This document shows, piece by piece, positions 4,779 through 62,096 of a stretch of DNA of 64,000 nucleotides (the stretch's first letter is position 1; each line of letters starts with the position of its first letter). The translations under genes and the position numbers were made by a program. Under the pieces are notes generated by a model. It searched no databases, was not told the origin of the DNA, and worked only from the letters and a program-made list of their open reading frames with translations. The stretch is from Comamonadaceae bacterium CG12_big_fil_rev_8_21_14_0_65_59_15 (lineage in GTDB: Bacteria; Pseudomonadota; Gammaproteobacteria; Burkholderiales; Burkholderiaceae_C): positions 8,934-72,933 of the forward strand of contig PCUV01000104.1 in assembly GCA_002786915.1 (NCBI GenBank), read 5' to 3'.

Positions 4779-5695
4779 CGCTCACCCGAGTCGGGCAACA
4801 CCACCACAATGGTCTTACCCGCGTTCTCCGGGCGCTGCGCCACGCGTACCGCCACCGCTGCGGCCGCACCACAACTGATGCCGCACAAGATACCTTCTTC
4901 ACGCGCGAGGCGGCGCGCAAACGCCACCGCGTCTTCGCTGCTGATCTGCTCCACCGCGTCAATCAGCGACAGGTCCAGCACGCCGGGCACAAAGCCGGCA
5001 CCGATGCCCTGGATCTTGTGCGGGCCGGGTTGAATGGCTTGGCCAGCGCGTGCTTGCGTGAGCACCGGGCTGGTGGTGGGCTCTACCGCAATCGACTGGA
5101 TGGCTTTGCCCTGTGTGCGCTTGAGGTAGCGTGTGACGCCGGTGATGGTGCCGCCGGTGCCCACACCGCTGACAAAAATATCGACCTTGCCGTCGGTGTC
5201 TTGCCAGATTTCGGGGCCAGTCGTCGCTTCGTGAATGGCCGGGTTGGCCGGGTTGGTGAACTGTTGCAGCAGCACGTATTTGGGGTCACTGGCGGCAATT
5301 TCTTCGGCCTTGGCAATGGCGCCTTTCATGCCTTTGGCGCCTTCGGTCAGCACCAGTTTGGCGCCGTAGGCCAGCAGCAGTTTGCGCCGCTCGATGCTCA
5401 TGGTGTCGGGCATGGTCAGCGTGATCGGAATGCCGCGCGCGGCCGCCACAAAGGCCAGCGCAATGCCGGTGTTGCCGCTGGTCGGTTCCACAATCTCCTT
5501 GCCCGGGCCGAGCAGGCCACGCTTTTCGGCGTCCCACACCATGGCCGCGCCAATGCGGCACTTGACCGAATACGCCGGGTTGCGGCCTTCAATCTTGGCC
5601 AGCACGGTGGCCTTGGCACCGTCGGTGACGCGGTTCAGGCGCACCAGCGGCGTGCGGCCGATGGACAGCGAGTTGTCATTGAAAAAGTTAGCCAT
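4715..5695 (-). CDS. cysK: Cysteine synthase A
   Basis: [19 protein letters not shown] (PLP Lys), [31 protein letters not shown]. Confidence 0.97.
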
Positions 5696-5778
5696 TCGAT
5701 GCTCCTTAAAAAATAGTTGTCAATGCAATGATGACGTGGATCGGGATAAATTTGTTCTCGCGCCAAGTCGTTGCTTTA

Positions 5779-5865
5779 CCGTCATTCCCGCGGAGGCATT
5801 CGCCGTCATTCCCGCGCAGGCGGGAATCTAGTGCGCGCTGGATTCCCGCCTGCGCGGGAATGACG
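5779..5865. repeat. REP-like hairpin (GTCATTCCCGCGCAGGCGGGAATC family) with an extra partial copy
   Basis: Perfect 25-bp inverted arms at 5804-5828 and 5841-5865; partial direct copy at 5779-5797; ATTCCC-N8-GGGAAT core. Confidence 0.9.
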
Positions 5866-5895
5866 AAGATGGCTGAGCACAAACTTACCCTGCTA

Positions 5896-7191
5896 TCAGA
5901 CGGCTTCCAGCGCTTGCGTCAAATCAGCCAGCAGGTCGTCAATGTGTTCGATGCCGATCGACAGGCGCACGGCATCTTCCGGGATGCCTGCCTTGGCCAG
6001 TTCATCCGGCGACAACTGCCGGTGCGTGGTGGAGGCCGGGTGCGTGGCCAGCGACTTGGAATCGCCAATATTGACCAGCCGGGTAAAAAGTTTGAGTGCA
6101 TCCAGAAAAGCGGCCCCGGCCACACGGCCCTGTCCCGCCACAGCCTTGACGCCAAAGGTAAACAGGCCCGACGCCTTGCCGCCCATGTACTTTTGCGCCA
6201 GCGCATGGTCTGGATGGTTCGGCAAACCGGCGTAGCTGACCCAAGCCACCTTGGGATGGTTCTGCAAATACTGCGTGATCTGGGCCGTGTTGTCGTTGAT
6301 GCGATCCATGCGCAGCGCCAGCGTCTCGATGCCTTGCAAGATCAAGAAAGCGTTGAAAGGCGACAGCGCTGCGCCCATGTTGCGCAGCGGCACCACGCGC
6401 GCGCGCCCAATGTACGCGGCCGGGCCAAGTGCTTCGGTATAGACCACGCCGTGGTAACTCACGTCCGGCTCGTTCAGGCGTTTGAAGCGCGCCTTGTGCT
6501 GCGCCCACGGGAACTTGCCCGAATCAACAATGGCCCCGCCAATGCTGTTGCCGTGACCACCCAAATATTTGGTAAGCGACTGCACCACGATGTCGGCGCC
6601 GTGCTCAATCGGGCGCCACAGGTAGGGCGTGGCCACCGTGTTATCTACGATCAACGGCACGCCGTTGCGGTGCGCCACCTCTGCAATGGCGGCAATGTCT
6701 GAAAGCCGCCCCTGCGGGTTGCTGATCGATTCGACATACACCGCCTTGGTCTTGTCGTCGATCTGCGCCTGCAAGGCGGCCAGATCATTAGGGTCAACAA
6801 AACGCACCTGAATGCCCAGTTGCGGAAAGGTGTGCGCAAACAGGTTGTAGGTGCCACCGTACAGCGCCTTGCTGGCCACAATGTTGTCGCCCACCTCGGC
6901 AATGGTCTGGATCGCGTACGTCACCGCCGCCGAACCCGAGGCCAGCGCCAGCCCGGCAATGCCCCCTTCGAGCGCGGCCAGACGCTGCTCGAGCACGTCG
7001 TTGGTGGGGTTCATGATGCGGGTGTAGATGTTGCCCGGCACCTTCAGGTCAAACAGGTCGGCGCCGTGTTGCGCACTGTCAAAGGCGTAGGCCACGGTCT
7101 GGTAGATCGGCACCGCCACCGATTTGGTGGTGGGGTCCGGGCTGTAACCGGCGTGCACCGATTGGGTTTCAAATTTCCAGTTGGCTGACAT
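5896..7191 (-). CDS. metY: O-acetylhomoserine aminocarboxypropyltransferase (sulfhydrylase)
   Basis: VPIYQT, GNIYTRIMNPT, SLTKYLGGHG, LVNIGDSKSLATHPASTTH. Confidence 0.95.
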   Translation of the reverse strand: MSANWKFETQSVHAGYSPDPTTKSVAVPIYQTVAYAFDSAQHGADLFDLKVPGNIYTRIMNPTNDVLEQRLAALEGGIAGLALASGSAAVTYAIQTIAEVGDNIVASKALYGGTYNLFAHTFPQLGIQVRFVDPNDLAALQAQIDDKTKAVYVESISNPQGRLSDIAAIAEVAHRNGVPLIVDNTVATPYLWRPIEHGADIVVQSLTKYLGGHGNSIGGAIVDSGKFPWAQHKARFKRLNEPDVSYHGVVYTEALGPAAYIGRARVVPLRNMGAALSPFNAFLILQGIETLALRMDRINDNTAQITQYLQNHPKVAWVSYAGLPNHPDHALAQKYMGGKASGLFTFGVKAVAGQGRVAGAAFLDALKLFTRLVNIGDSKSLATHPASTTHRQLSPDELAKAGIPEDAVRLSIGIEHIDDLLADLTQALEAV

Positions 7192-7557: not shown

Positions 7558-7593
7558 GGGTTTGGGTTTGGGTTTGGGTTTGGGTTTGGGTTT
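7558..7593 (+). repeat. (GGGTTT)6 tandem repeat, potential G-quadruplex
   Basis: Six perfect units followed by a degenerate GGTTTTG. Confidence 0.95.
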
Positions 7594-7627
7594 GGTTTTG
7601 ACCTGTCACCATTGATAATTCAGCCCC

Positions 7628-9667
7628 ATGTCCCCCCTGCCCCACCAACTCGAACTGTTAGCCCCCGCGCGCGACGCAGCCATTGGCGTGGAAGCCGTCA
7701 ACCACGGGGCCGACGCGGTGTACATTGGCGGGCCGGGCTTTGGGGCCCGCTCCAGCGCTGACAATTCTGTAGCAGACATCGCCCGCTTGGTAAGCCACGC
7801 ACATCGTTTCAACAGCCGCATTTTGGTCACGCTCAACACCATTCTGCGCGACGACGAGCTCGAGCCAGCGCGCAAGCTGGCCTGGCAGTTGTATGACGCG
7901 GGCGCAGACGCGCTGATCATCCAGGACATGGGCCTGCTGGAGCTGGATTTGCCACCGATTCAGCTCCACGCCAGCACGCAATGCGACATCCGCACGCCCG
8001 AGAAAGCGCGTTTTTTGCAAGACGTGGGGCTGAACCAGATCGTGCTGGCGCGTGAGCTCACCTTGGCGCAGATTGCCGCCATCCGCGCCGCCACCGACCC
8101 CGGCCGCTGTACGCTTGAGTTTTTTGTGCACGGTGCGCTGTGCGTGGCTTACAGCGGCCAGTGTTTCATCTCTGAGGCCCACACCGGGCGCAGCGCCAAC
8201 CGGGGTGAATGCAGCCAGGCTTGCCGCCTGCCCTACCAGGTGGTCGATGACAAGGGCCGCTTTGCGGCACATGACAAACACGTTTTGAGCATGAAAGACA
8301 ACAACCAGAGCGCCAACATTACCGCGCTGGTCGATGCCGGCGTGCGCAGCTTCAAGATCGAAGGCCGCTACAAAGACATGGCCTACGTCAAAAACATCAC
8401 CGCACATTACCGCACGCTGCTTGACGCGCTGATCGAAGAACGCCAGCAGTCAGACCAACCCCTGGCGCGCGCCAGCAGTGGCCGTACCACCTTTACCTTC
8501 ACCCCCGACCCCAACCAGAACTTCAACCGCGCGTTCACCGACTACTTTGTCAACGGCCGTCAGGACGATATTGGCGCGTTTGACAGCCCCAAAAATCCGG
8601 GCCAACCCATTGGCTACGTGCTGCAGACCGGCCCCAACTGGGTTGAGCTGGAACTGGCCAACCGCACAACCGAGCTGCACAACGGCGACGGTCTGTGCTA
8701 CTACGACCTGCAAAAAGAGCTGGTCGGCCTGGCCATCAACCGCGCCGAGCTGATCAGCGCCAAAAAAGCCCGCTGGCGCGTGTTCCCCAAAGACGCGCTG
8801 GCCACTTTGAAGGATTTGCGCAAGGGGGTAGAGGTCAACCGCAATCGCGATGTGGCGTGGTTGCGCCAGCTCGACAAAAAGTCCAGTGACCGGCGCATCA
8901 GCGTCTGGGCACAGGTGCGTGTGTTGCCAGAAACCATCGAGTTGACCCTGACCGACGAAGACGGCCACAGCGCCACGGTGCAGCAGGCTTTTGCATCGGC
9001 CAACCGCCAACACAGTGACGATGCTGATGCCGTGCAGGCCCAGGTCAGCGCTCAGATCAGCCGCTTGGGTACAACTGATTTCATAGCGACTCACACAGGT
9101 ATTGACTGGGCTACAGGCCAATTTGGCCTATGTGTTTTGCCCAGCTCGCTGCTCAACGCGCTGCGCCGCGAGGCAGTGGATGCGCTGACCGCTGCACGCG
9201 CCAAAGCCTTCACCCCCCTGCCCCGCGCCGCGCCCGTGGAGCCGCCTGCACCCTACCCCGAGGACACGCTGAGCTACCTGGCCAACGTCTATAACCACAA
9301 GGCGCGTGACTTTTATGCGCGCCACGGCGTGAAAGTGATCGACGCAGCCTTTGAGAACCACCAGGAAACCGGCGAAGTCAGCCTGATGATCACGAAACAC
9401 TGCGTGCGCTATTCGCTCAGCCTGTGCCCCAAGCAGGCCAAGGGGGTGATTGGCGTGCAGGGCCAGGTGCGCGCCGAACCGCTGCAATTGGTCAACGGCA
9501 AAGACACCTTCACCCTGCGTTTTGACTGCAAGCCGTGCGAGATGCACGTCATGGGCCAATTGAAGCCAACTGCTGCCAAGCAGGCGCACGCCCTGCAATT
9601 GGCCAACGCGCACGGCGCACCGCTGACCTTTTACAAAACCCGCCCGCAGAGCAAGCTCAGAACCTAA
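7628..9667 (+). CDS. rlhA: U32 family protein, RlhA-like 23S rRNA C2501 hydroxylation protein
   Basis: LELLAPA, GADAVYIG, LHASTQCD, EFFVHGALCVAYSGQC, RSANRGECSQACR, SFKIEGR; long C-terminal extension. Confidence 0.85.
   Translation: MSPLPHQLELLAPARDAAIGVEAVNHGADAVYIGGPGFGARSSADNSVADIARLVSHAHRFNSRILVTLNTILRDDELEPARKLAWQLYDAGADALIIQDMGLLELDLPPIQLHASTQCDIRTPEKARFLQDVGLNQIVLARELTLAQIAAIRAATDPGRCTLEFFVHGALCVAYSGQCFISEAHTGRSANRGECSQACRLPYQVVDDKGRFAAHDKHVLSMKDNNQSANITALVDAGVRSFKIEGRYKDMAYVKNITAHYRTLLDALIEERQQSDQPLARASSGRTTFTFTPDPNQNFNRAFTDYFVNGRQDDIGAFDSPKNPGQPIGYVLQTGPNWVELELANRTTELHNGDGLCYYDLQKELVGLAINRAELISAKKARWRVFPKDALATLKDLRKGVEVNRNRDVAWLRQLDKKSSDRRISVWAQVRVLPETIELTLTDEDGHSATVQQAFASANRQHSDDADAVQAQVSAQISRLGTTDFIATHTGIDWATGQFGLCVLPSSLLNALRREAVDALTAARAKAFTPLPRAAPVEPPAPYPEDTLSYLANVYNHKARDFYARHGVKVIDAAFENHQETGEVSLMITKHCVRYSLSLCPKQAKGVIGVQGQVRAEPLQLVNGKDTFTLRFDCKPCEMHVMGQLKPTAAKQAHALQLANAHGAPLTFYKTRPQSKLRT
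9072..9132 (+). repeat. ~60-bp fixed-spacing motif, copy inside rlhA
   Basis: ATAGCG-N17-CTGGGCTACAGGCCAATTT. Confidence 0.7.
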
Positions 9668-12828: not shown

Positions 12829-15003
12829 TTAAACCGGCACGATCAACCCGCGCACTCGCCGCAGCACCGCATACGGCGGCAAGCCCTGCAACATACGCCT
12901 GCCATACGATTGGCTCAGCAATCGCTTGTCGTAACACACTACCCGTGCCCGATCTGTTTCGGTGCGGATGGCGCGGCCGGTCCATTGCAGCAGGCGGATG
13001 CCGGTGGCAGGCACCACCAGTTCAGTGAACGGGTCACGCCCTTCACGTTTAAGCCATTCAGCGCGCGCTTCTTCTACCGGGTCAGAGGGCGATGCAAACG
13101 GCAGCTTGGCAATAAAGACGGTTTCACACAGCAAGCCGGGCAAATCCAGCCCCTCGCCAAACGACTGCATGCCAAAGATCACCGACGGCTGGCCGGATTC
13201 CACGCGCGCCATGTGGCTGGCAATCAAACGATTGCGTGACATCTGGCCCTGCACCAGCACCAGCGCCTGCAAAGCAGTGTCCAGCGCGGCGACGGCGGCC
13301 TTCATCTGCATGCGTGAGGTAAACAACACCAACGCACCGTGAGGGACCTGGCGCAGGTCGCCCAGCAGGATGGTGACCATTTCTTGCGTGTAGGCATCGA
13401 CGTGGCGCGGGTCGGCTTGCGTATCGACGACCGTCAGCTCGCCCTGCTGGCGGTAATCAAACGGGCTTTCGACAGCCAGTGTTGATACCTGCGGCAGCTC
13501 TGCCAGCCCGGCCTCGGCCATAAAAAAATCAAACGTGCCGCAACTCGTCAGCGTGGCCGAGGTGACCACCGCGCCACGCACCTGCGCCCACAGGTGCTGG
13601 CGCAGCAAATCGCCCGGCACCAGCGGGCACGCGTGCGCGCTCAGGGCCACCACGCCTGTGCTTGAGTCGGCCTTGAGCCATTTAGCCATCGGTTGCGCCT
13701 CGTGCGTGAGCAACATCGTGCTGGTGGCCACCACACTGGTCAGGCGCGGTGCCATTTGCCCCAGGCGCGCGTAGTGCAGCGCCAGCTGCGCCGCGCGCGA
13801 CGGGTCTTCCTTGGCCTGAGCCTTGAGCTCTGCGCCCAGCTCTTCCAAAACATCAGAAAGCGCCCCCGCATGCGCATGGATCAGTGTCATGGGCGCGGTC
13901 AACGCATCGGGCAGCACGCCGTCTTTAAAGCGATAGACCGTGTCAAAACTGGCCGTCACACCGCGCAGCAAGTCCATGCTGATGCGGCCTGCGTCCAGCA
14001 AGGCGCCGCGCAGTTGCTGCGCCAGCGTGGGCAAGTCTTGCGCAATAGCCACCTCCAGTTGGTCAGCCACGTCGTGCAAAGTTTTAGGCAATCTCTCGAG
14101 CCAGCGCAAACTCGTTAGATCCATCGCGCTTGAAAATTGGCCTAGCGCCACCGCAGGCAGGTGGTGACCTTCGTCAAACACCAACAGGCATTTGTTCAGC
14201 TCAGGCAAGGCGTTCATGCCCAATGAGGCCAGTACCAGGTCGTGGTTGGCCACAATCACCTGTGCCTGAGCCAGCGCAGCGCGCGCGTTGTAGTAGCTGC
14301 AATCACGAAAACGAGGGCAGTGCCGCGCGGTGCAGGTGTGGCGCTCGGCGGCGATGGTGGACCAGTCGCGCGGGTCGGGTTGTTCGGGCAGACTGTCGCG
14401 GTCACCGTCCCACTGCCCTGCTGCCAGCGCCTCGGCCAGGGTATCCAAGAGCTGCATGCGACGCTGCATCGGATCCATGCCGTCCGCACCCTTTGCGCAC
14501 TTGCCCGGCAGGCCTGCGCTCGTGGGCGTGGGAGCATCGTCTTCGTCCGTAAAAAAATCGGTGGTAGCGTCGCCGCCGGCACCGGCCAGGCGCTCGAGTT
14601 TGAGCTTGCACACGTAGCGCCCACGCCCTTTGGCCAGCGCGTAAGCAAACGGCTGCGCCAACACCGTTGCCAGCGCGGGCAGGTCTTTGGTCATGAGCTG
14701 CTCTTGCAGCGCCACCGTGGCGGTGGAGACCACCACGCGCGTCTTGCGCTGTAGTGCCAGCGCGACCGTGGTGGACAGATAGGCTGCTGATTTTCCCACG
14801 CCGGTGCCGGCCTGGATGACGGCGATGGCGCAGTCGGGCTCCACGCTGTCGCCCAGCGTCACGTCGTGCAGCTTTTGAGCAATGCACTCGGCCATGGCAC
14901 GCTGACCCGCTCGCGCCCTGAAGCCAGGCGTGGCCGCAACGACCCGGTCAAACGCGGCCAGCGACAAGGCCGCCAGGTCCGCGTCGGTGTCAGCGTTGCT
15001 CAA
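12829..15003 (-). CDS. dinG: ATP-dependent DNA helicase DinG
   Basis: QAGTGVGKS, four Fe-S Cys, VANHDL, DEGHHL, TSATL, EGLDLPG, GRAIRTE; TTG start overlaps upstream stop. Confidence 0.95.
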   Translation of the reverse strand: MSNADTDADLAALSLAAFDRVVAATPGFRARAGQRAMAECIAQKLHDVTLGDSVEPDCAIAVIQAGTGVGKSAAYLSTTVALALQRKTRVVVSTATVALQEQLMTKDLPALATVLAQPFAYALAKGRGRYVCKLKLERLAGAGGDATTDFFTDEDDAPTPTSAGLPGKCAKGADGMDPMQRRMQLLDTLAEALAAGQWDGDRDSLPEQPDPRDWSTIAAERHTCTARHCPRFRDCSYYNARAALAQAQVIVANHDLVLASLGMNALPELNKCLLVFDEGHHLPAVALGQFSSAMDLTSLRWLERLPKTLHDVADQLEVAIAQDLPTLAQQLRGALLDAGRISMDLLRGVTASFDTVYRFKDGVLPDALTAPMTLIHAHAGALSDVLEELGAELKAQAKEDPSRAAQLALHYARLGQMAPRLTSVVATSTMLLTHEAQPMAKWLKADSSTGVVALSAHACPLVPGDLLRQHLWAQVRGAVVTSATLTSCGTFDFFMAEAGLAELPQVSTLAVESPFDYRQQGELTVVDTQADPRHVDAYTQEMVTILLGDLRQVPHGALVLFTSRMQMKAAVAALDTALQALVLVQGQMSRNRLIASHMARVESGQPSVIFGMQSFGEGLDLPGLLCETVFIAKLPFASPSDPVEEARAEWLKREGRDPFTELVVPATGIRLLQWTGRAIRTETDRARVVCYDKRLLSQSYGRRMLQGLPPYAVLRRVRGLIVPV

Positions 15004-20902: not shown

Positions 20903-22018
20903 ATGACCACTACAACGCAAACAACTGTCTTCCAGCCCATTGCAGCCCGCCCGGCACCGGTCAACACGGAAGGCGCTTTGGCCTGGATCAGGGCCAACTT
21001 GTTTGGTGACTGGAAAACGTCACTGGCAACGATTGTCATCGGCGCGGTGCTGCTGCGACTGTTGCCGGGTCTCGTCGATTGGGCTTTTTTAAGCGCCGTC
21101 TGGCAACCCAGCTTTGACGCGTGCCGCGCAGATGGTGCGGGTGCCTGCTGGGGTGTCATCGTTGAAAAATACCGCGTCATCATCTTTGGCCGCTACCCGT
21201 TTGAGGAGCAATGGCGACCGCTGGTGGCGACCGCGTTGCTAATTGCCTTGCTGGTGGCGAGTTGCATCCGGTATTTCTGGAAAGCCTGGCTGCCCGTGTT
21301 GTGGGTCGTCGTTCTGGGACTCTTCTTTGCCCTCATGTATGGCAATGTGGCGGGCTTGAGCCAAGTGGACACCGACCGCTGGGGCGGGTTGCCACTGACC
21401 ATTCTGCTGGCGTCGCTGTCGCTGGTGGCGTCGTTTCCGATTGCCTTGCTGGTGGCGTTGGGGCGGCGTTCCAACCTGCCGGCCATCAAGACGTTTTGCA
21501 CCATTTACGTCGAACTGATCCGTGGCGTGCCGCTGATCTCGGTGCTGTTCATGGCGTCTTTCATGTTCCCGCTGTTCATGCCACCAGGCGTCAAGATTGA
21601 CGTGTTGCTGCGTGTGCTGGTGGGCATCACCCTGTTTGCTGCCGCGTATTCGGCCGAAGTGATTCGCGGTGGCTTGCAGGCGGTGCCCAAAGGCCAGGTG
21701 GAGGCAGCCGCCACGCTGGGCCTGACCTATTGGCAAACGCAACGCAAGATCGTGCTGCCCCAGGCGCTGGCCATGGTGGTACCGGGCATCATGAACAACT
21801 TCATCAGCACCTTCAAAGACACCTCGCTGGTCACCATCGTCAGTCTGTATGAGCTGATGGGTGCCATGAGCCTCGCGCTCAATTCCGATGCCGACTGGCG
21901 TCCCTTCACCATTGAAGGCTACATCTTCATTGCGCTGATTTACTTTGTGTTCTGCTTTTCCATGTCGCGCTACAGCCACTGGGTTGAGAAGCAGGTGAAC
22001 AAGAGCAAATTGCGATAA
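20903..22018 (+). CDS. aapM: Amino acid ABC transporter permease
   Basis: WGGLPLT, RGVPLISVLFM, EVIRGGLQAVPKGQ.EAA. Confidence 0.92.
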   Translation: MTTTTQTTVFQPIAARPAPVNTEGALAWIRANLFGDWKTSLATIVIGAVLLRLLPGLVDWAFLSAVWQPSFDACRADGAGACWGVIVEKYRVIIFGRYPFEEQWRPLVATALLIALLVASCIRYFWKAWLPVLWVVVLGLFFALMYGNVAGLSQVDTDRWGGLPLTILLASLSLVASFPIALLVALGRRSNLPAIKTFCTIYVELIRGVPLISVLFMASFMFPLFMPPGVKIDVLLRVLVGITLFAAAYSAEVIRGGLQAVPKGQVEAAATLGLTYWQTQRKIVLPQALAMVVPGIMNNFISTFKDTSLVTIVSLYELMGAMSLALNSDADWRPFTIEGYIFIALIYFVFCFSMSRYSHWVEKQVNKSKLR

Positions 22019-22019
22019 C

Positions 22020-22184
22020 TTGCGGGACAGACCAATAAACTTTTAATTTGCGGGACAGACCAACATTTGCGCAGCAAATTTGCTCTGTCCCCAACACTTG
22101 AAGATTTGCTCTGTCCTCAACTGATTAAAACTTGCGGGACAGATCAGAAACAATTTTTGAATTTGCACTGTCCCCAACTGATTA
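22020..22184. repeat. Cluster of six short GGGACAG/CTGTCCC-core repeats
   Basis: TTGCGGGACAGA at 22020, 22048 and 22132; reverse-type ATTTGC(T/A)CTGTCC(C/T)CAAC at about 22078, 22104 and 22161. Confidence 0.85.
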
Positions 22185-22200
22185 GAAACTGGAATCAATC

Positions 22201-22956
22201 ATGGCAGAGACTTCCCCCTCCCCCATCATCACGTTTGACAAAGTCAACAAGTGGTACGGCAACAACTTTCACGTGTTGCGCGACATTGACCTGAGCGTGG
22301 CCAAAGGCGAACGCATCGTCATTTGCGGCCCATCAGGCTCGGGCAAGTCCACGCTGATTCGCTGCATCAACCGTCTTGAAGAACACCAGCAAGGCCACCT
22401 GACCGTCGATGGCACTGAACTGACCGACGACGTCAAAGCGATTGACCGGGTGCGCAAAGAAGTGGGCATGGTGTTCCAACAGTTCAACCTTTTCCCGCAC
22501 CTGACGGTGCTGGAAAACCTGACGCTGTCGCCCATGTGGGTGGGCAAGATGCCCAAAAAAGAAGCCGAAGAAAAAGCCATGGCGCAGTTGCAGCGCGTGC
22601 GCATTGCCGAGCAGGCGGGCAAATACCCGCTGCAACTCTCCGGCGGCCAGCAGCAACGCGTGGCGATTGCACGCGCGTTGTGCCTCAAGCCAAAGATTAT
22701 GCTGTTTGACGAGCCCACCAGCGCGCTCGACCCCGAGATGATCAAGGAAGTGCTCGACGTAATGATTGCCATGGCCGACGAGGGCATCACCATGTTGTGC
22801 GTGACGCACGAAATGGGCTTTGCCAAAGCGGTGGCCGACCGCGTGATCTTTATGGACCAGGGTCAGATCGTCGAGCAAAACAACCCGCACGACTTCTTCA
22901 ACAACCCGCAGAGCGAGCGCAGCAAAGATTTTTTATCGAAGATTCTGGGGCATTGA
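22201..22956 (+). CDS. aapP: Amino acid ABC transporter ATP-binding protein
   Basis: [30 protein letters not shown]. Confidence 0.95.
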
Positions 22957-43289: not shown

Positions 43290-43811
43290 ATGGCGCGCAT
43301 CGTCATCGCCGATGCGGGACCCTTGATTGCGCTGGCACGCATTAACCAGATTGATTTGCTCAACGATCTTTTCGGCCCTGTGAAGGTGACATCGGTCGTC
43401 GCTGATGAAGTTCTTCGTGGCGGCGATTTTCCGGATGCTTCCTTGCTGTCACAGGCTTTCAGCCAAACCATGCTATGGCGTGTCACCCGTCAAAGTCAGG
43501 ACAATCTCAGCCAAGCCAAGAGCTTGATGAACCTGTACCAAATTGATGAAGGTGAAGCCAGTTCGATGGTGTTGGCGCAGCAGGCACAGACTGAAGGCGA
43601 CCAGGCCTTGCTGATCATGGATGATTGGCGTGGACGCAGCGCGGCACAACACGCCGGTTTGCCCGTGGTTGGCACCGTTGGCGTGTTGCTACTGGCCAAA
43701 CAACAAGGGCAGGTCAAACACATCAAACCACTGCTTCTGGATTTGCACCAACACGGCTACTTTTTGAGCCAGCGCCTGATTGACAGTGCGCTTGAGCAAG
43801 CGGGAGAGTGA
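43290..43811 (+). CDS. PIN-domain protein, DUF3368-like (putative toxin)
   Basis: IVIADAGPLIAL, IDEGEA, LIMDDWRGR, GTVGVLL.AK. Confidence 0.85.
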   Translation: MARIVIADAGPLIALARINQIDLLNDLFGPVKVTSVVADEVLRGGDFPDASLLSQAFSQTMLWRVTRQSQDNLSQAKSLMNLYQIDEGEASSMVLAQQAQTEGDQALLIMDDWRGRSAAQHAGLPVVGTVGVLLLAKQQGQVKHIKPLLLDLHQHGYFLSQRLIDSALEQAGE

Positions 43812-44816: not shown

Positions 44817-45071
44817 ATGAACACTTGGCCGGTTCAGGATGCCAAAGCCCGGTTCAGCGAGTTTTTGCAAGCGTGCCTGGCTAGCGGGCCGCAGCTGGTC
44901 ACCAAGCGTGGGCAAGAAGCCGCTGTGCTGGTGCCTGTCGGTCAATGGCGGCAGTTGCAAGCCAACAGCCGACCATCGCTCAAACAGGTGTTACTGGACG
45001 CGGCAGCGCGAGCTGACTTGCCCATTCCACCACGCGGCACCTCCCCGCGCCGTGCCGCACCGAAGTTGTGA
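44817..45071 (+). CDS. Phd/YefM family antitoxin
   Basis: WPVQDAKARFSE, GPQLVTKRG.EAAVLV. Confidence 0.92.
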   Translation: MNTWPVQDAKARFSEFLQACLASGPQLVTKRGQEAAVLVPVGQWRQLQANSRPSLKQVLLDAAARADLPIPPRGTSPRRAAPKL

Positions 45072-45551
45072 TGTTTTTGCTGGACACCAACGTGGTTTCC
45101 GAGCTGCGCAAGACCAGGCCACACGGCGCGGTGCTGGCCTGGCTGACCGCCACGCCCGAGTCTGACCTGTTCATCTCGGCCGTAACTTTGGGTGAAATTC
45201 AGCGCGGCATTGAACTCACCCGCGACCAAAACCCAGCCAAGGCGCTTGAACTGTCCCATTGGGCTGACCTCAAGGCACATGCTTTGTGGTCAGTATGCTG
45301 CACCAGCCAAGGCGCTTGAACTGTCCCATTGGGCTGACCAGCTCGCCACCACGACCAACCTGCTGCCCATGGACGCCGCCGCTTTTCGCGCCTGCGCGCG
45401 CCTGATGCACCACCAGTCAGGCGCATTGTTTGAAGATGCCATGATTGCCGCCACCGCCCAAGTGCATCAACTCACCGTGGTGACGCGCAACACGCGCGAC
45501 TTTGCCGGGTTTGGCGTGCCGTTGTTTAACCCTTTCAGCCAACCTGTTTAA
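45068..45551 (+). pseudogene. vapC: VapC PIN toxin frameshifted by a 70-bp insertion
   Basis: FLLDTNVVSEL...EIQRGIE in one frame, EDAMIAATA..VVTRNTRDF in another; removing 70 bp joins them. Confidence 0.9.
45233..45339 (+). repeat. Perfect 37-bp direct repeat flanking 33 bp of unrelated DNA
   Basis: CCAGCCAAGGCGCTTGAACTGTCCCATTGGGCTGACC at 45233-45269 and 45303-45339. Confidence 0.95.
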
Positions 45552-45561
45552 ATTGCTTTCT

Positions 45562-47649
45562 GTGAACATTTCCCCGCCAAATCCCCCTCCCCGCCGACCG
45601 ATCCGCGAACTGCCCGACGCGCTGATCAGCCAGATCGCCGCTGGCGAGGTAGTGGAGCGCCCGGCCTCGGTGGTGCGTGAGCTGCTGGACAACGCACTCG
45701 ATGCCGGGGCCACGCAGGTCACCGTGCGGCTGCTGGCCGGTGGTGTGCGCCTGATCAGTGTGGAAGACAACGGCTGCGGCATCTTGCCCGACGAGTTACC
45801 CATCGCCCTCAAACGCCACGCCACGAGCAAGATTGGCAGCCTCTCTGACCTGGAGTCGGTGGCCACCATGGGCTTTCGGGGGGAGGCCCTGGCTGCTATC
45901 AACTCCATTGCTGACTGTGCATTGCTGTCAAGGGCTGAAGGCAAAAATCATGCTTACCTTTTGGAGGGGCAAACGGGCGAATTGAAACCGGTGGCGCGCA
46001 GCACAGGCACCACGGTCGAGGTCAAAGAGCTGTTTTTTGCCACCCCCGCGCGGCGCAAGTTCCTCAAGACCGATGCCACCGAACAGGCACACTGTGTGGA
46101 GGCCGTTCGCCGCCACGCGCTGGCCCGGCCCGACGTAGGCTTTGCCATCTGGGCCGACGGCAAGCTCATTGAGCAATGGCGCCGCTGCGGCGATGCAGGC
46201 AGCCTGCCCGCGCTGGAGCAGCGCCTGGCCGACGTGCTGGGCAGCGACTTTGTCGAGCGCGCGGTGTGGGTTGACTTCAGCAACCAAAGCGCCGCATTGA
46301 CGGGCAGCTTGCAGCCTGCCATCAAGGTCTGGGGCCGCGCTGGCATTCCAGATGCCGCACGCTCCAGAGCTGACCAGCAGTTTTGCTATGTGAACGGCCG
46401 TTTTGTGCGCGACAAGGTCATCACCCACGCCGCCCGCAGCGCCTACGAAGACGTGTTGCACGGCCAGCGCCAGCCGGTGTACGTGCTCTATGTTGAGATC
46501 GACCCCACGCGCGTGGACGTGAACGTGCACCCAACCAAGATCGAGGTGCGGTTCAGGGACAGCCGTGAGGTGCATCAGGCGGTGCGCCATGCGGTCGAAT
46601 CCGCGCTGGCCACACCGCGCGCCGGAACGGCTGCGGCTGTGCCGTTGCTGACGGGATGGCCGCACCCAGCCCCACTGGGCGCAGGCAACCCCAATGCTGC
46701 AAGCGCCCATGGTGACCCGTTTAGCCGGGCAGACGCGAGCGCAGGCAGCGCTACAGCTTCTGATTTTTATAAGCAAAATAAGCCTCTAGCGCCTGTGCAG
46801 TATGCACAAGCAGCTATGCACTTTGAAGCACCTCCGGGCCATCGCGTGAGCGACCTGGGTGCGCTGTGGGGGCCATCCAGCGCACCGCACCCTGCCCGAG
46901 TGGCCGAAGATACCGCACCGCTTACACCCGACGAGTCGGACAAGATGAACCCGGTTTTTCTCCCTCCCCCACAGGGGGAAGGAGCCATCCATCCACAGCA
47001 CCTGGATTCTTCAAACGCTTTCACCACCCCCCCAAACGACTGGCCGCTCGGCCGCGCCCTGGCGCAGCTGATGGGGGTGTACATCCTGGCCGAAAACGCG
47101 CAGGGGTTGGTGATTGTCGATATGCACGCCGCGCACGAACGCATCGTTTATGAACGCCTGAAAGCGCAGTGGGACGCGGTGCAAACCAGCGCCGCGTCCG
47201 CGCAGGCCGCCCTGTCCAGCCAGCCGCTGCTGATTCCCGCCACCTTTGCCGCCACACCGCTGGAAGTGGCCACCGCCGAGGCCAGCGCAGACACCTTGCA
47301 CGCGCTGGGGCTGGACATCACGCCGTTTTCTGACAAAACGCTGGCGGTGCGCGCCGTGCCGACCACGCTGGCACAAGGCGACGCAGTGGAGCTGGCGCGC
47401 AGCGTGCTGGCCGAGCTGGCACAACACGATGCCAGCACGGTGCTGGCGCGCGCCCACAATGAGCTGCTGAGCAGCATGGCCTGCCACGGCGCGGTGCGTG
47501 CCAACCGCCGCCTCACCCTGGAAGAAATGAACGCGCTATTGCGCCAGATGGAAGCCACCGAACGCAGCGACCAGTGCAACCATGGCCGCCCCACCTGGCG
47601 CCAACTCAGCCTGCGTGAGCTGGATGCGCTGTTTCTACGCGGGCGCTGA
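45562..47649 (+). CDS. mutL: DNA mismatch repair endonuclease MutL
   Basis: SQIAAGEVVERPASVVRELLDN, MGFRGEAL, DVNVHPTK.EVRF, DMHAAHER, MACH, CNHGRPTW; GTG start inferred. Confidence 0.97.
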   Translation: MNISPPNPPPRRPIRELPDALISQIAAGEVVERPASVVRELLDNALDAGATQVTVRLLAGGVRLISVEDNGCGILPDELPIALKRHATSKIGSLSDLESVATMGFRGEALAAINSIADCALLSRAEGKNHAYLLEGQTGELKPVARSTGTTVEVKELFFATPARRKFLKTDATEQAHCVEAVRRHALARPDVGFAIWADGKLIEQWRRCGDAGSLPALEQRLADVLGSDFVERAVWVDFSNQSAALTGSLQPAIKVWGRAGIPDAARSRADQQFCYVNGRFVRDKVITHAARSAYEDVLHGQRQPVYVLYVEIDPTRVDVNVHPTKIEVRFRDSREVHQAVRHAVESALATPRAGTAAAVPLLTGWPHPAPLGAGNPNAASAHGDPFSRADASAGSATASDFYKQNKPLAPVQYAQAAMHFEAPPGHRVSDLGALWGPSSAPHPARVAEDTAPLTPDESDKMNPVFLPPPQGEGAIHPQHLDSSNAFTTPPNDWPLGRALAQLMGVYILAENAQGLVIVDMHAAHERIVYERLKAQWDAVQTSAASAQAALSSQPLLIPATFAATPLEVATAEASADTLHALGLDITPFSDKTLAVRAVPTTLAQGDAVELARSVLAELAQHDASTVLARAHNELLSSMACHGAVRANRRLTLEEMNALLRQMEATERSDQCNHGRPTWRQLSLRELDALFLRGR
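45894..45956 (+). repeat. ~60-bp fixed-spacing motif inside the MutL ATPase domain
   Basis: TGCTAT-N7-ATTGCT-N17-AAGGGCTGAAGGCAAAAAT. Confidence 0.7.
46765..46830 (-). repeat. ~60-bp fixed-spacing motif in the MutL linker
   Basis: Reverse strand TGCTTC-N7-ATAGCT-N17-AGGCGCTAGAGGCTTATTTT. Confidence 0.85.
46960..46985. repeat. C/G-rich REP half-element in the MutL linker
   Basis: CTCCCTCCCCCACAGGGGGAAGGAGC resembles the elements at 16290-16409. Confidence 0.7.
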
Positions 47650-58217: not shown

Positions 58218-59309
58218 CTACTGGGAAAGAAGTGGAGCAACCGCGCGGCGCTGCACCGAACGGTAAACATCAAGCCGTACATACCATTGGTCCAGCACAT
58301 ACAGGCGCGCGTCGGTGTCAATCGCCAGGCCAGACGGCAGCATGTAAGTAGCCGCTGCCCCCACATCACCACGACTGCCAATCACGTAACGATAGTCGCC
58401 CCCGGGGCCAAACACCTGAATATTGCCAAACGAGGCATCGGTCACATACACCAGGCCTTGCGCGTCAGTGGCAATTTCCTTGGGCCGTTGAAACTGCCCC
58501 GGACGTTTGCCCGCACTGCCAAAGCTTTTGAGGTACTGCCCATGCGCATCAAAAATCTGGATGCGATAGTTTCCACTGTCCACCACATACAAGCGGCCGT
58601 CTTGCCCCACTGCGGCATCCAGCGGCCGATCAAATTCACCCGGGCCTTCACCGCCGTTGCCGATATCCATCAGGTGGCTGCCCGTGACCGCGTTGAACAC
58701 GCGCACCCGGTGCTGCCCTTCGGTCTGGTCAACGGCATAGACGCGCTGACGATCGGAATCCACCGCCACATTGATCAGCTTGCGCAGCCAGCGCGACCCG
58801 CCCAGCTTACGCAACTCTCGCCCCTGCGCGTCCAGCACCAGCACATAGCCCGACAAACCGTCGGCCACATACCAGTTGCCGCTACGGTCCACGCTGATGC
58901 CCACTGGCATGCGCTGCCCCCCCTGCGCCGACAAATCAACACTGAAAAATTGGCGTTGTGCAAAGTCAAACACGCTCAGCGACGAGTCCAGCGCGTTGAT
59001 CACCGCCACCCGCCCCTGGTGCGCAGCCAGCGCCAGCGGCCGACTCAAACCTTTACCGCCGCCACGTTTAGCACCCACCAGCAGGGTCAAAAAACCGCTG
59101 TCAGCGCCTTGATTGGCCAGGTCATTGGCCTCAAACACACTGCGCTCAAACTGGTAGGCCGGTGCCGCCGGTGGTGGCGGAAACACGCGCGGTGCCTCGG
59201 GCTCAGTGCTCTGTGGCCCGGTGGCACCACAGCCTGCCAGCACCAGCATACAAGCCAGCACCAGCGCCACCACCCCACGCCGCCCATTAAAGTTGTTTGT
59301 CATCACCAA
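58218..59309 (-). CDS. NHL-repeat beta-propeller lipoprotein
   Basis: Lipobox LAGC; repeats such as G.GPGEF.RP..., GRLYVVDSGN.RIQIFD, VYVTD. Confidence 0.9.
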   Translation of the reverse strand: MVMTNNFNGRRGVVALVLACMLVLAGCGATGPQSTEPEAPRVFPPPPAAPAYQFERSVFEANDLANQGADSGFLTLLVGAKRGGGKGLSRPLALAAHQGRVAVINALDSSLSVFDFAQRQFFSVDLSAQGGQRMPVGISVDRSGNWYVADGLSGYVLVLDAQGRELRKLGGSRWLRKLINVAVDSDRQRVYAVDQTEGQHRVRVFNAVTGSHLMDIGNGGEGPGEFDRPLDAAVGQDGRLYVVDSGNYRIQIFDAHGQYLKSFGSAGKRPGQFQRPKEIATDAQGLVYVTDASFGNIQVFGPGGDYRYVIGSRGDVGAAATYMLPSGLAIDTDARLYVLDQWYVRLDVYRSVQRRAVAPLLSQ

Positions 59310-60630
59310 TGCCCAGCTTTTTCATTTTTTCCCACAGGTTTTTGCGGCTGATGCCCAGCACGGCAGCGGTTTCGGCAATCTTGCCCTGCTTGCTTTTCAG
59401 AATCTGCTCAATGTACTGGCGCTCGTAGCTGCCCAGGTAGTCGTTGAGCGATGTTGCCTGTTGCTGCTCTTCTGGTTCAGGGTCCTGCACGCCACCAAAC
59501 AGCGCATTCGGCGTCAGCACCGCCTGGCTCGACAAAATGCAGGCGCGCTCCAACACACTCTTGAGCTCACGAATGTTGCCCGGCCAAGGGTGTTCCAGCA
59601 GCGCCTGTTCGGCCTGCGGGCTCAGCTCGCGCCGCGCGCGGCCGTGCTGCACTGCCTCGGCGTCGAGCATCAGGCCCGCCAGCCACAAAATGTCTTCCTT
59701 GCGCTCGCGCAGCGGTGGAATCTGCAGCTCCAGCACGTTGACACGGTAAAACAGGTCTTCGCGAAACTCGTTCGCTTCCACCATCTTCTTGAGGTTGCGG
59801 TTGGTGGCACACACCAGGTTGATGCTGATCGGAATCAGCTTTTCTGCGCCCACGCGCACCACCTTGCGCTCCTGGATCACGCGCAACAGCTTGACCTGCA
59901 TCGACAGCGGCATCTCGCCCACTTCGTCCAGAAACAGCGTGCCACCGTCGGCCTGTTCAAAATAGCCTTCCTTGTCGCGGATGGCGCCGGTGTAAGCGCC
60001 CTTGACGTAACCAAACATTTCGGCTTCCATCAGTGTCTCGGTGATGGCACCGCAGTTGACTGAAATAAACGGCTTCTTGTTGTCAGGGTCGCGCATACGA
60101 TGCAGCGCGCGCGCCACCACCTCTTTGCCCACGCCCGACTCACCGGTAATCAGCACCGTGATGTTGTCGGCCACCAGCCGTGGCAGCAGCGACTCGATAT
60201 GCCGCATCGGTTTGGAAATGCCCAGCACCGCCTTGCCGTCTGACGCGCCCTCGCCGATGGAGTTGCGGCTCAAAATATTGCGCACCATCTCGATCAGTAC
60301 GCGGATGTCAACCGGCTTGGTCAGATAGTCTTCAGCGCCCAGCTTGAGCAAGCTCACCGCACGGTCAATGGCACCATAGCCGGTCATAAAGATATACGGC
60401 GGCAATTCCACACCAGCGGCGCGCATCTCCTGAAACAGGCGCTCGCCGTCAATGTCTGGCAGCTTGATGTCGCTGATCACCACGCCAAACTTGTCTTTTG
60501 TCAGCGCAGCGCGCGCCGACTCGCCGGTCTTGAACCAGGTCCAATCCAAGCCCTCGATCTCAAAGCGGTCTGACACCGCCTCACCCATGATCTCGTCGTC
60601 TTCTATCAAACAAATGCGGTTCGAACTCAT
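59287..60630 (-). CDS. sigma54-dependent response regulator (NtrC family)
   Basis: Receiver IEDD/SD, GESGVGKE, EMFGYVKGAYTGA, FLDEVGE, WPGNIREL, Fis HTH. Confidence 0.95.
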   Translation of the reverse strand: MSSNRICLIEDDEIMGEAVSDRFEIEGLDWTWFKTGESARAALTKDKFGVVISDIKLPDIDGERLFQEMRAAGVELPPYIFMTGYGAIDRAVSLLKLGAEDYLTKPVDIRVLIEMVRNILSRNSIGEGASDGKAVLGISKPMRHIESLLPRLVADNITVLITGESGVGKEVVARALHRMRDPDNKKPFISVNCGAITETLMEAEMFGYVKGAYTGAIRDKEGYFEQADGGTLFLDEVGEMPLSMQVKLLRVIQERKVVRVGAEKLIPISINLVCATNRNLKKMVEANEFREDLFYRVNVLELQIPPLRERKEDILWLAGLMLDAEAVQHGRARRELSPQAEQALLEHPWPGNIRELKSVLERACILSSQAVLTPNALFGGVQDPEPEEQQQATSLNDYLGSYERQYIEQILKSKQGKIAETAAVLGISRKNLWEKMKKLGIGDDKQL

Positions 60631-62096
60631 GCTTGCTTTGTCTCTGCCATTGGCAATGTGACCGAGAACCTGACCCGGCCATTTTCTTGCTGCAAGTCTA
60701 TCTTGCCGCCCAGCTGCTGCACGATCTGGTACGTCACCCACAGCCCCAAACCATGGCCCTGGCCCGATTGGCTCAGCGGCGAAAACGGCTCAAACAAATG
60801 CGCGCGCTGCTCGGGCGTAAAGTCCTTGCCATCGTTTTCCACCCACAGCAACAACTGTTCGCCCTGATCTTGCACCCGGCACTCCACCACACCCCGGCAA
60901 TTGGCTGCCTGGATCGCGTTAAGAAGCAGGTTGATCAGCACCTGGCGCACCTGATTGGCCTGTAGCGGCACAGCGCGCGCCAGGTCGCTTGCCCACTGCA
61001 ATTGCAGCTCTTTCTTTTGCACCTGCGGGAACACCAGCGAACGCACATCTTCCACGTCTTGCGGCTCCAGATCACGGTTGCGCACACGCGCTTCCACCAG
61101 CAGCGCCCCTACCGTCTGCTTGATTTGCTTGAGCCCGCGCTGGATCAATGCCACCGTCTTGGCCGTGCGGGCATCCATGTTGCCATAAGCATTGAGCGTA
61201 TCAATGGCGGTGAGCATGCCGCCCAGCGGGTTGTTGATCTCATGCGCCACCCCGGCGGCCAGATGCCCGACGGCAGCCAGCCGCTCAGAGTGCACCACTT
61301 GTTTTTCTAACGCATCTTTGTCCTGTTGTTCGATCAACATTCGTTTGTAAGCCTGAAACAGCACCCCCAGTTCATCGTGGTAGGGATAGAGCTGGTCCAC
61401 CACCTCGGTGGCGGCGTTCAGGTCGTTTTCTCGCATGCGCTGACTGATCAGCACCAGCGGCCGTACCGTGCGGTGTGCCCAGTACCAGTTAACCGGCAGC
61501 AACACCGCCAGCGCAATCAAGCCCATGGTGGCACCGTGGATCAGAATCTGGAAGAAGCGTGGCCACAAAATCTCGTCTTTGGCGTGCACCACAATCAAGG
61601 TGCCCAGCGTAAAGCCGTCGTGCATGATGGGCGCAGCAATGTAAAAATTTTTCTCGTCCTGCATGTCGTAGGTCGAGTTGGTCAGATTTTTCGACTCGGT
61701 AATACGCTGCACAAACATGCTGTATTCGGGCGTCAACTGGTTCACCGTCGTGCCCATCGGGATCAACATCGGGTCGGTCGATGTGACCACCTTGAGCTCG
61801 TTGTCAAGCACCAGAATAAAGCGCGGCTTTTGAATATCTTTGGCGTGGGATGAAACCAGCGGCGCATTGATGATGCCAAAAGCGCGCCACAGGTCGTCTT
61901 CCATCAACGGATGAAACAAATCGTCAGCCAGCCGGTGCGCCAGGCTGGACGAGCCCGCCAGCAGGTTCTGGCGCAAGTCGTCATACGCCTTATAGACCAG
62001 CGACAGTGACACCAGCAGCGTCGTCACAACAATCAAAAAGCTGCCCCAGATCGGAATCTTGTAGCGCAGGCTCAGGTCAAAAAAGCGTTTCATCAT
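60627..62096 (-). CDS. HAMP-domain sensor histidine kinase
   Basis: Two TM, HDELG, AHEINNPL, NLLLNA, GHGLGL. Confidence 0.94.
   Translation of the reverse strand: MMKRFFDLSLRYKIPIWGSFLIVVTTLLVSLSLVYKAYDDLRQNLLAGSSSLAHRLADDLFHPLMEDDLWRAFGIINAPLVSSHAKDIQKPRFILVLDNELKVVTSTDPMLIPMGTTVNQLTPEYSMFVQRITESKNLTNSTYDMQDEKNFYIAAPIMHDGFTLGTLIVVHAKDEILWPRFFQILIHGATMGLIALAVLLPVNWYWAHRTVRPLVLISQRMRENDLNAATEVVDQLYPYHDELGVLFQAYKRMLIEQQDKDALEKQVVHSERLAAVGHLAAGVAHEINNPLGGMLTAIDTLNAYGNMDARTAKTVALIQRGLKQIKQTVGALLVEARVRNRDLEPQDVEDVRSLVFPQVQKKELQLQWASDLARAVPLQANQVRQVLINLLLNAIQAANCRGVVECRVQDQGEQLLLWVENDGKDFTPEQRAHLFEPFSPLSQSGQGHGLGLWVTYQIVQQLGGKIDLQQENGRVRFSVTLPMAETKQA

Follow-up and report, generated by a model that had tools for sequence, protein, structure and literature searches.

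An interrupted PIN toxin gene upstream of mutL carrying a 37+33+37-bp repeat-insert-repeat structure, a possible natural case of off-target spacer integration

The locus described here lies in a 64-kb stretch of DNA from a groundwater betaproteobacterium (Comamonadaceae); this stretch, taken as a whole, is referred to as the window, and it comprises three genes of the forward strand, namely vapB, vapC, and mutL. The vapB antitoxin gene (44817-45071) is intact and codes for an 84-aa protein of the Phd/YefM family (TIGR01552 phd_fam, 1.6e-11, above the curated cutoff; PF02604). Its TGA stop codon shares one nucleotide with the ATG of vapC (45071), the overlap lying at 45069-45073, and the PIN toxin gene that follows is divided into two parts: the 5' part (45071-45232), upstream of the duplication described below, corresponds to residues 1-54 of the restored toxin and aligns with intact homologues, and the 3' part (45340-45551), corresponding to residues 67-136, is now out of frame with it. 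The mutL gene (45562-47649; 695 aa; PF01119 and PF08676) starts 11 nt past the vapC stop codon. This vapBC-mutL adjacency (45551-45562 in the window) is kept in lineages that are 80-90% identical (L012-L016), with the vapC stop ~10 nt from the next start; the spacing suggests that the toxin-antitoxin (TA) module might be co-transcribed with the mismatch-repair gene.

The interior of vapC contains two identical 37-nt direct repeats (CCAGCCAAGGCGCTTGAACTGTCCCATTGGGCTGACC), located at 45233-45269 and 45303-45339 (100% identity, 70 nt from start to start). They are the sole two copies of this sequence in the 64 kb when up to three mismatches are allowed, and none of 100 shuffles gave such a pair. 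The first copy is made up of native vapC codons (PAKALELSHWAD) and aligns to the single copy present in two related genomes discussed below (L011 and L016). The two copies enclose a 33-nt insert (45270-45302; TCAAGGCACATGCTTTGTGGTCAGTATGCTGCA), apparently foreign, whose GC content is 48%, that of the host being ~60%; even with three mismatches allowed, the window holds no second match to it, nor is any k-mer of at least 12 nt shared with the rest of the window, the longest common k-mer (11 nt) being at chance level. An earlier note on this DNA had described a perfect 37-bp duplication around 33 bp with no match elsewhere in the window, and the mismatch-tolerant and k-mer searches fully agree with this description. 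Since the bases outside the two copies differ on both sides, the 37/33/37 borders are blunt and unambiguous. No terminal inverted repeats were found in the insert, nor did folding reveal any significant structure in it, and the weak palindrome that had been perceived in the 37-mer does not rise above what is seen in shuffled sequence (fold z = -0.84; 40 of 200 shuffles fold equally well).

The vapC frame is normal through residue 66 (…HWAD), after which come the insert and then the second repeat copy, read out of frame. The 70-bp addition shifts the frame and leads to a premature TGA stop codon at 45317-45319, inside the second copy. In other assemblies, gene callers report vapC as two fragments of 82 and 90 aa, each with a weak PIN match, between which the acidic PIN residues are divided; the start chosen for the C-terminal fragment is an ATG at 45279, that is, inside the insert. 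When positions 45270-45339 are removed in silico, a 136-aa full-length FitB-like PIN protein is obtained, and, the insertion aside, the frame carries no other lesion; the frameshift and the inactivation of the toxin, as originally claimed, are confirmed by this stop codon and by the effect of deleting the 70 bp. The restored protein shares 96% identity with an intact protein (P0001), and its identity to over 100 further PIN proteins of full length is 70-91%; PF01850 is found in all these homologues, the VapC NCBIfam matches of the restored protein are sub-threshold, and its residues 1-132 align end to end with FitB of N. gonorrhoeae (2H1C, E = 5e-16).

The PIN toxin and the small, coupled upstream antitoxin that make up a VapBC/FitAB module are therefore both present, the frame of the toxin not being intact. 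To judge from its sequence, vapBC, which lies immediately 5' of mutL, is a toxin-antitoxin operon of type II resembling FitAB, and its PIN toxin gene was pseudogenised by a single 70-bp event. Indeed, it resembles the degenerate VapBC/FitAB modules in having an intact Phd-type antitoxin gene 5' of the PIN toxin gene, a 1-nt stop/start overlap, and a lost toxin; the difference lies in the lesion itself, toxin loss in those modules being usually due to point mutations, IS insertion, or deletion, and not to an insertion of CRISPR dimensions. The most fitting view of the vapC lesion is that the toxin was lost with a neutral or mildly beneficial effect, the antitoxin being still intact.

The structure is not confined to a single assembly. 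Ten metagenome contigs, each assembled separately (by ENA, JGI, and NCBI submitters), contain the exact 735-nt vapBC stretch including the 37+33+37 arrangement, and over 5-20 kb the identity of the contigs of this population to the window is 99.95% or higher. The assemblies of this population include GCA_001871935.1, ERZ27293414, and JGI 3300009004. Logan contigs (k = 31) were inspected for twelve groundwater/aquifer runs, nine of which cover the site. In these nine runs the graph breaks as a 37-nt repeat predicts, the left contig stopping 30 nt into the first copy and the right one starting 30 nt before the end of the second, and an unbranched unitig passes through the insert (93 nt, 45240-45332, in seven runs). 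In the six runs where the 37-mer forms a separate unitig, its depth is about twice that of the spacer, which implies exactly two copies. The assembled contigs and the runs are repeat sightings of one near-clonal population, in which the insertion is fixed, and not independent lineages. The possibility of an assembly error, raised in the earlier note, is refuted at the level of the contigs: with an identical structure in 10 assemblies produced by different pipelines, and with unitigs of consistent depths in nine runs, the probability of an assembly or sequencing artefact is practically nil.

The comparison with related genomes permits the state of the locus without the insertion to be recognized. 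The sister MAG L016 (GCA_036171975.1), which shares ~90% nucleotide identity with the window and a syntenic order of genes (rbs transporter, ROK kinase, VTT protein, vapB, vapC, and mutL), harbors a single 37-mer; in BLAST alignments with the window, the overlap of its HSPs coincides exactly with this 37-mer, which aligns to both copies. The same empty site is found in L011-L015, and vapC is uninterrupted in all of the 80 relatives retrieved from GTDB genomes (80/80). The existence in relatives of an empty site with a single 37-mer implies that the structure in the window is a target-site duplication around captured DNA; what had been proposed from one sequence, i.e., a target duplication of vapC coding sequence around an unrelated 33 bp, is thus borne out by L011-L016 and by the 80 further relatives. 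The same data bear on the age of the event, which had been held to be recent given the identity of the repeats: the insertion is later than the split from a sister lineage that is ~10% diverged, and the claim stands in this sense and not beyond it.

The substitution Q63H, which distinguishes the 37-mer of the host, is present in both copies and is therefore older than the duplication. The dN/dS value of vapC vs. its sister orthologue is ~0.13. Out of the seven amino acid differences from the sister, five are derived on the branch of the window (residues 63, 70, 81, 125, and 129 of the restored protein) and one on that of the sister; these small numbers give a hint that selection on the broken toxin may have been relaxed.

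The surroundings of vapBC also differ between the two genomes. The window carries a second TA-like pair at ~42.4-43.8 kb, between the ROK kinase and the VTT/DedA genes, consisting of a UPF0175/Phd-like gene and a DUF3368 PIN-like gene ending at 43811. This pair is missing at the L016 counterpart (4906-7066), and L016 has a DcuA/DcuB transporter between VTT and vapB. The difference in the TA-like pair and in DcuA/DcuB points to the mutL neighbourhood as an indel-variable spot collecting TA modules.

As regards the origin of the 33-mer, neither a protospacer nor a PAM was found in any collection searched, and the only matches retrieved were chance ones of 17-18 nt. The phage and plasmid databases, to which the earlier note had looked for a source and a PAM, were searched by blastn (50,697 INPHARED phages and 72,556 PLSDB plasmids) and gave no significant match to the 33-mer; the same is true for IMG/VR, which was queried with the exact 33-mer, two 20-mers, and three codon-wobble patterns. 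The GTDB genomes contained no match to the 33-mer and the JGI contigs none to its central 25-mer, both results being weak negatives in that the host's own locus and the host's own contigs, respectively, were not returned either. Most natural spacers are without a known match. In eight host-containing metagenomes with contigs spanning the whole insert (host at ~3-20x), the 31-mers of the insert have no second context. The unbranched unitig through the insert implies that neither another part of the host chromosome nor any co-assembled replicon served as its template, and the sequence data argue for captured foreign DNA rather than for a copy of a host sequence.

A further question concerns the mechanism that might have led to this structure. 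On the basis of its geometry and of published precedent, the best-fitting one is a full-site off-target (non-canonical) spacer integration by Cas1-Cas2, giving rise to a one-spacer “neo-CRISPR”, and we assign to it about even chances. According to this model, two strand transfers, one on each strand and staggered by 37 bp, would have joined a ~33-bp duplex into vapC, and the gap filling that followed would have produced the 37-bp duplication flanking the 33-bp insert. Lengths of 37 and 33 nt are within the usual ranges of CRISPR repeats and spacers, respectively, and, to our knowledge, Cas1-Cas2 is the only bacterial machinery that routinely joins a ~33-bp duplex with a duplication of 23-47 bp. 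We infer from this that Cas1-Cas2 might have been the enzyme of the vapC insertion.

Off-target integration generating neo-CRISPR units in vivo has been reported in E. coli, the natural cases mentioned in the accounts cited here being circumstantial (Nivala, Shipman & Church 2018, Nat Microbiol, via PMC7054753, PMC6698737, bioRxiv 10.1101/148544); purified Cas1-Cas2 also integrates off-target, at non-CRISPR sites (PMC6698737, PMC6895254). In the G. sulfurreducens I-U system, whose repeats are of 36-37 nt, the preferred spacers are of 36 bp and not of 33 (PMC6547450). The vapC structure shares with the neo-CRISPR units of Nivala et al. a unique spacer-sized insert, a perfect repeat-length duplication of a chromosomal non-CRISPR target, the presence of one spacer, and a location outside arrays. 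Indeed, perfect direct repeats of repeat length surround one unique insert of spacer length (37+33+37), and the repeat duplicates a pre-existing target that is single-copy and uninterrupted in relatives (L011-L016 and the 80 GTDB genomes). The published cases, as these accounts present them, concern E. coli over-expressing the I-E integrase, with a 28-bp duplication, a 33-bp spacer, and a known enzyme and spacer source; in the vapC case, in contrast, the duplication is of 37 bp, interrupts a coding gene, and has reached fixation in a population in the wild, and Cas1-Cas2 is putative.

The resemblance to a canonical CRISPR repeat-spacer-repeat unit concerns the 37/33/37 dimensions and the perfect identity of the repeats. 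The difference is that the vapC repeat is ordinary coding sequence with an empty-site homologue and that it is accompanied by neither a leader nor adjacent cas genes nor a match to an Rfam CRISPR-DR family. A functional array is not what lies here: there are two repeats and one spacer, with no further units, and nothing suggests that the unit functions as one. The PADLOC, Pfam, and NCBIfam scans detected no cas1/cas2 or other cas genes among the 57 ORFs of the window, the repeat scan and TRF detected no further CRISPR arrays in the 64 kb, and neither cas genes nor a CRISPR array were found in the 9 kb beyond its left end (73 kb examined in all). The comparison of the 37-mer with the Rfam CRISPR-DR families gave no match, the host metagenomes contain no repeated sequence with 80% or more similarity to it, and in the twelve runs, nine of which cover a repeat border, the repeat never leads into a different spacer. 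The idea of an off-target Cas1-Cas2 product, as put forward in the earlier note, therefore gains from the 37/33 dimensions and from the target duplication, and it loses from the 73 kb devoid of cas genes and arrays, from the failure of the searches for a protospacer and a PAM, from the lack of an Rfam repeat, from the presence of a single spacer, and from the preference of the G. sulfurreducens system for spacers of 36 bp.

The same end product, i.e., a duplication and an unrelated insert joined bluntly, might also be the outcome of break repair with filler capture, in which nicks or a staggered double-strand break ~37 nt apart would be filled in and then sealed by NHEJ or alternative end joining around a stray 33-bp fragment. 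The foreign-looking composition and the single-copy state of the insert fit captured extracellular or plasmid DNA, and the finding of no cas genes in the window is also in agreement with this possibility. However, bacterial NHEJ insertions are usually of a few nucleotides, no agent is known that would cut this site with a 37-nt stagger, and the match of both lengths to CRISPR dimensions would have to be a coincidence; on balance, we judge this mechanism unlikely. A comparable class is represented by the tandem duplications with filler generated by end joining, such as FLT3-ITD in human leukaemia, which likewise combine a short coding duplication with unrelated nucleotides at the junction; this class, however, is described mainly in eukaryotes, and we know of no documented bacterial pathway for a 33-bp filler with a blunt 37-bp duplication.

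Replication template switching (FoSTeS/MMBIR-like), which the earlier note had listed among its alternatives, would require that the polymerase left after the 37-mer, copied 33 nt elsewhere, and returned upstream of the 37-mer. Such switches can yield duplications with short templated inserts, but the window contains no donor on either strand (the 11-nt common k-mer being the longest), the 31-mers of the insert lack a second context in the host metagenomes, and the return junction, where the flanks differ immediately, shows no microhomology. A single-copy insert, lying on a unitig that is unbranched in the host metagenomes, renders this alternative quite improbable.

We see a slim chance that the structure is the scar of a mobile element, either an IS with long target-site duplications (IS1634/IS1549-type) or an element with a 37-bp att site, which integrated and was later deleted to 33 bp. 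It is true that some IS and integrated elements are flanked by long direct repeats, but the 33 nt are single-copy and without the terminal inverted repeats of an IS or a MITE, they have no significant match in the 50,697 phage and 72,556 plasmid records or in IMG/VR, and a deletion leaving exactly 33 nt between intact duplications would be a second unlikely event. Transposons and casposons share with the vapC case a staggered strand transfer followed by gap repair; nevertheless, their target-site duplications are typically of 2-15 bp (14-15 in casposons) and their inserts are kilobases long and bear inverted repeats, whereas here the duplication is of 37 bp and the insert is of 33 bp and bears none.

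It is very improbable that the structure is a functional device, in which either a repeat-repeat deletion restores the toxin, as in the reversible switch imagined in the earlier note, or the 70 nt are bypassed at the translational or transcriptional level. Recombination or slippage between direct repeats at a distance of 70 nt can lead to a precise deletion, and the vapC frame is otherwise free of lesions. Nevertheless, neither the assemblies nor the protein collections yielded a revertant allele: ~15 billion predicted proteins do not include the restored protein in its exact form, and a pattern search of the JGI contigs did not retrieve the empty allele with the host SNPs (a weak negative, since the host's own contigs were not returned there). 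The empty allele has no diagnostic k-mer, because the 37-nt repeat is longer than k = 31, and its frequency was evaluated from depths. For the six runs in which the repeat has a unitig of its own, the repeat depth minus twice the spacer depth was -0.2, +2.4, +1.4, -2.2, -1.3, and -2.0, values which are centred on zero, and the spacer depth is close to that of the flanks in the Logan unitigs; no room is thus left for a sizeable empty-site fraction, rare revertants being of a kind that contig data would miss. A bypass of the gene-60 type needs a stop codon directly after the take-off codon and a significant hairpin, and neither is present; moreover, the five of seven amino acid changes that fall on the branch of the window hint at relaxed constraint.

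Turning back to off-target integration by Cas1-Cas2, the vapC insertion is apparently a single, non-functional lesion in a dispensable toxin gene, and the lesion is most likely an example of a known but rarely observed kind, that is, a natural off-target spacer integration. The wider claim that a one-spacer CRISPR-like unit was born here by this route, in a chromosomal toxin gene and in nature, and became fixed in the population is advanced tentatively, its probability falling somewhat short of even; a remoter alternative is an unknown integrase able to join a ~33-bp DNA by means of ~37-bp staggered cuts. Laboratory work has demonstrated that spacers can be integrated off-target, and this process has been proposed both to give rise to new CRISPR loci and to burden adaptation with a fitness cost, the natural examples being circumstantial. 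If the claim is true, the locus would be among the very few wild examples of neo-CRISPR genesis, and it would imply that genes can be inactivated by stray adaptation under natural conditions. In this respect the vapC locus represents a clean case from the wild, in which the empty site is defined, the target duplication is exact, and the outcome is the inactivation of a gene, and it might serve as a substrate for testing the target rules of the integrase and for estimating how often the adaptation machinery mutates its own host. If, on the other hand, Cas1-Cas2 were excluded, the locus would belong to an unusual class of bacterial insertion-duplications needing another mechanism.

Some additional features of the window and of the metagenomes deserve to be mentioned. 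Two PADLOC matches turned out to be false leads for the annotation of defence genes. The “typeIV_DinG” match (1.6e-112; 12829-15003) is a housekeeping DinG (NF008729, above cutoff), and the “RtcR CARF_AAA_HTH” match (9e-107) was attributed to an NtrC-type REC-sigma54 regulator (59287-60741), the only sigma-54 AAA protein seen in the window.

The first ~44 nt of vapC (MFLLDTNVVSELRK; region 45051-45112) have matches of at least 90% in several far more abundant contigs of the same metagenomes, which reach a depth of up to ~180x vs. 5-16x for the host and carry a G>T change at 45082. Many related vapC genes, belonging to other organisms or representing paralogues, co-occur with the host in these metagenomes.

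Other repeats are also present in the window. Two interleaved families of short repeats occupy positions 22016-22187, between the genes for an ABC permease (20903-22018) and an ABC ATPase (22201-22956); they consist of three copies of ~27 nt (ATTTGCTCTGTCCCCAAC…) and three copies of 20 nt (TAACTTGCGGGACAGACCAA) and look partly mutually complementary (GGGACAGA / TCTGTCCC), and they may represent a regulatory or REP-like element. Finally, a hexamer microsatellite, (GGGTTT)x7, lies at 7558-7600, just upstream of a U32-peptidase/TrhP-like gene (7628-9667).
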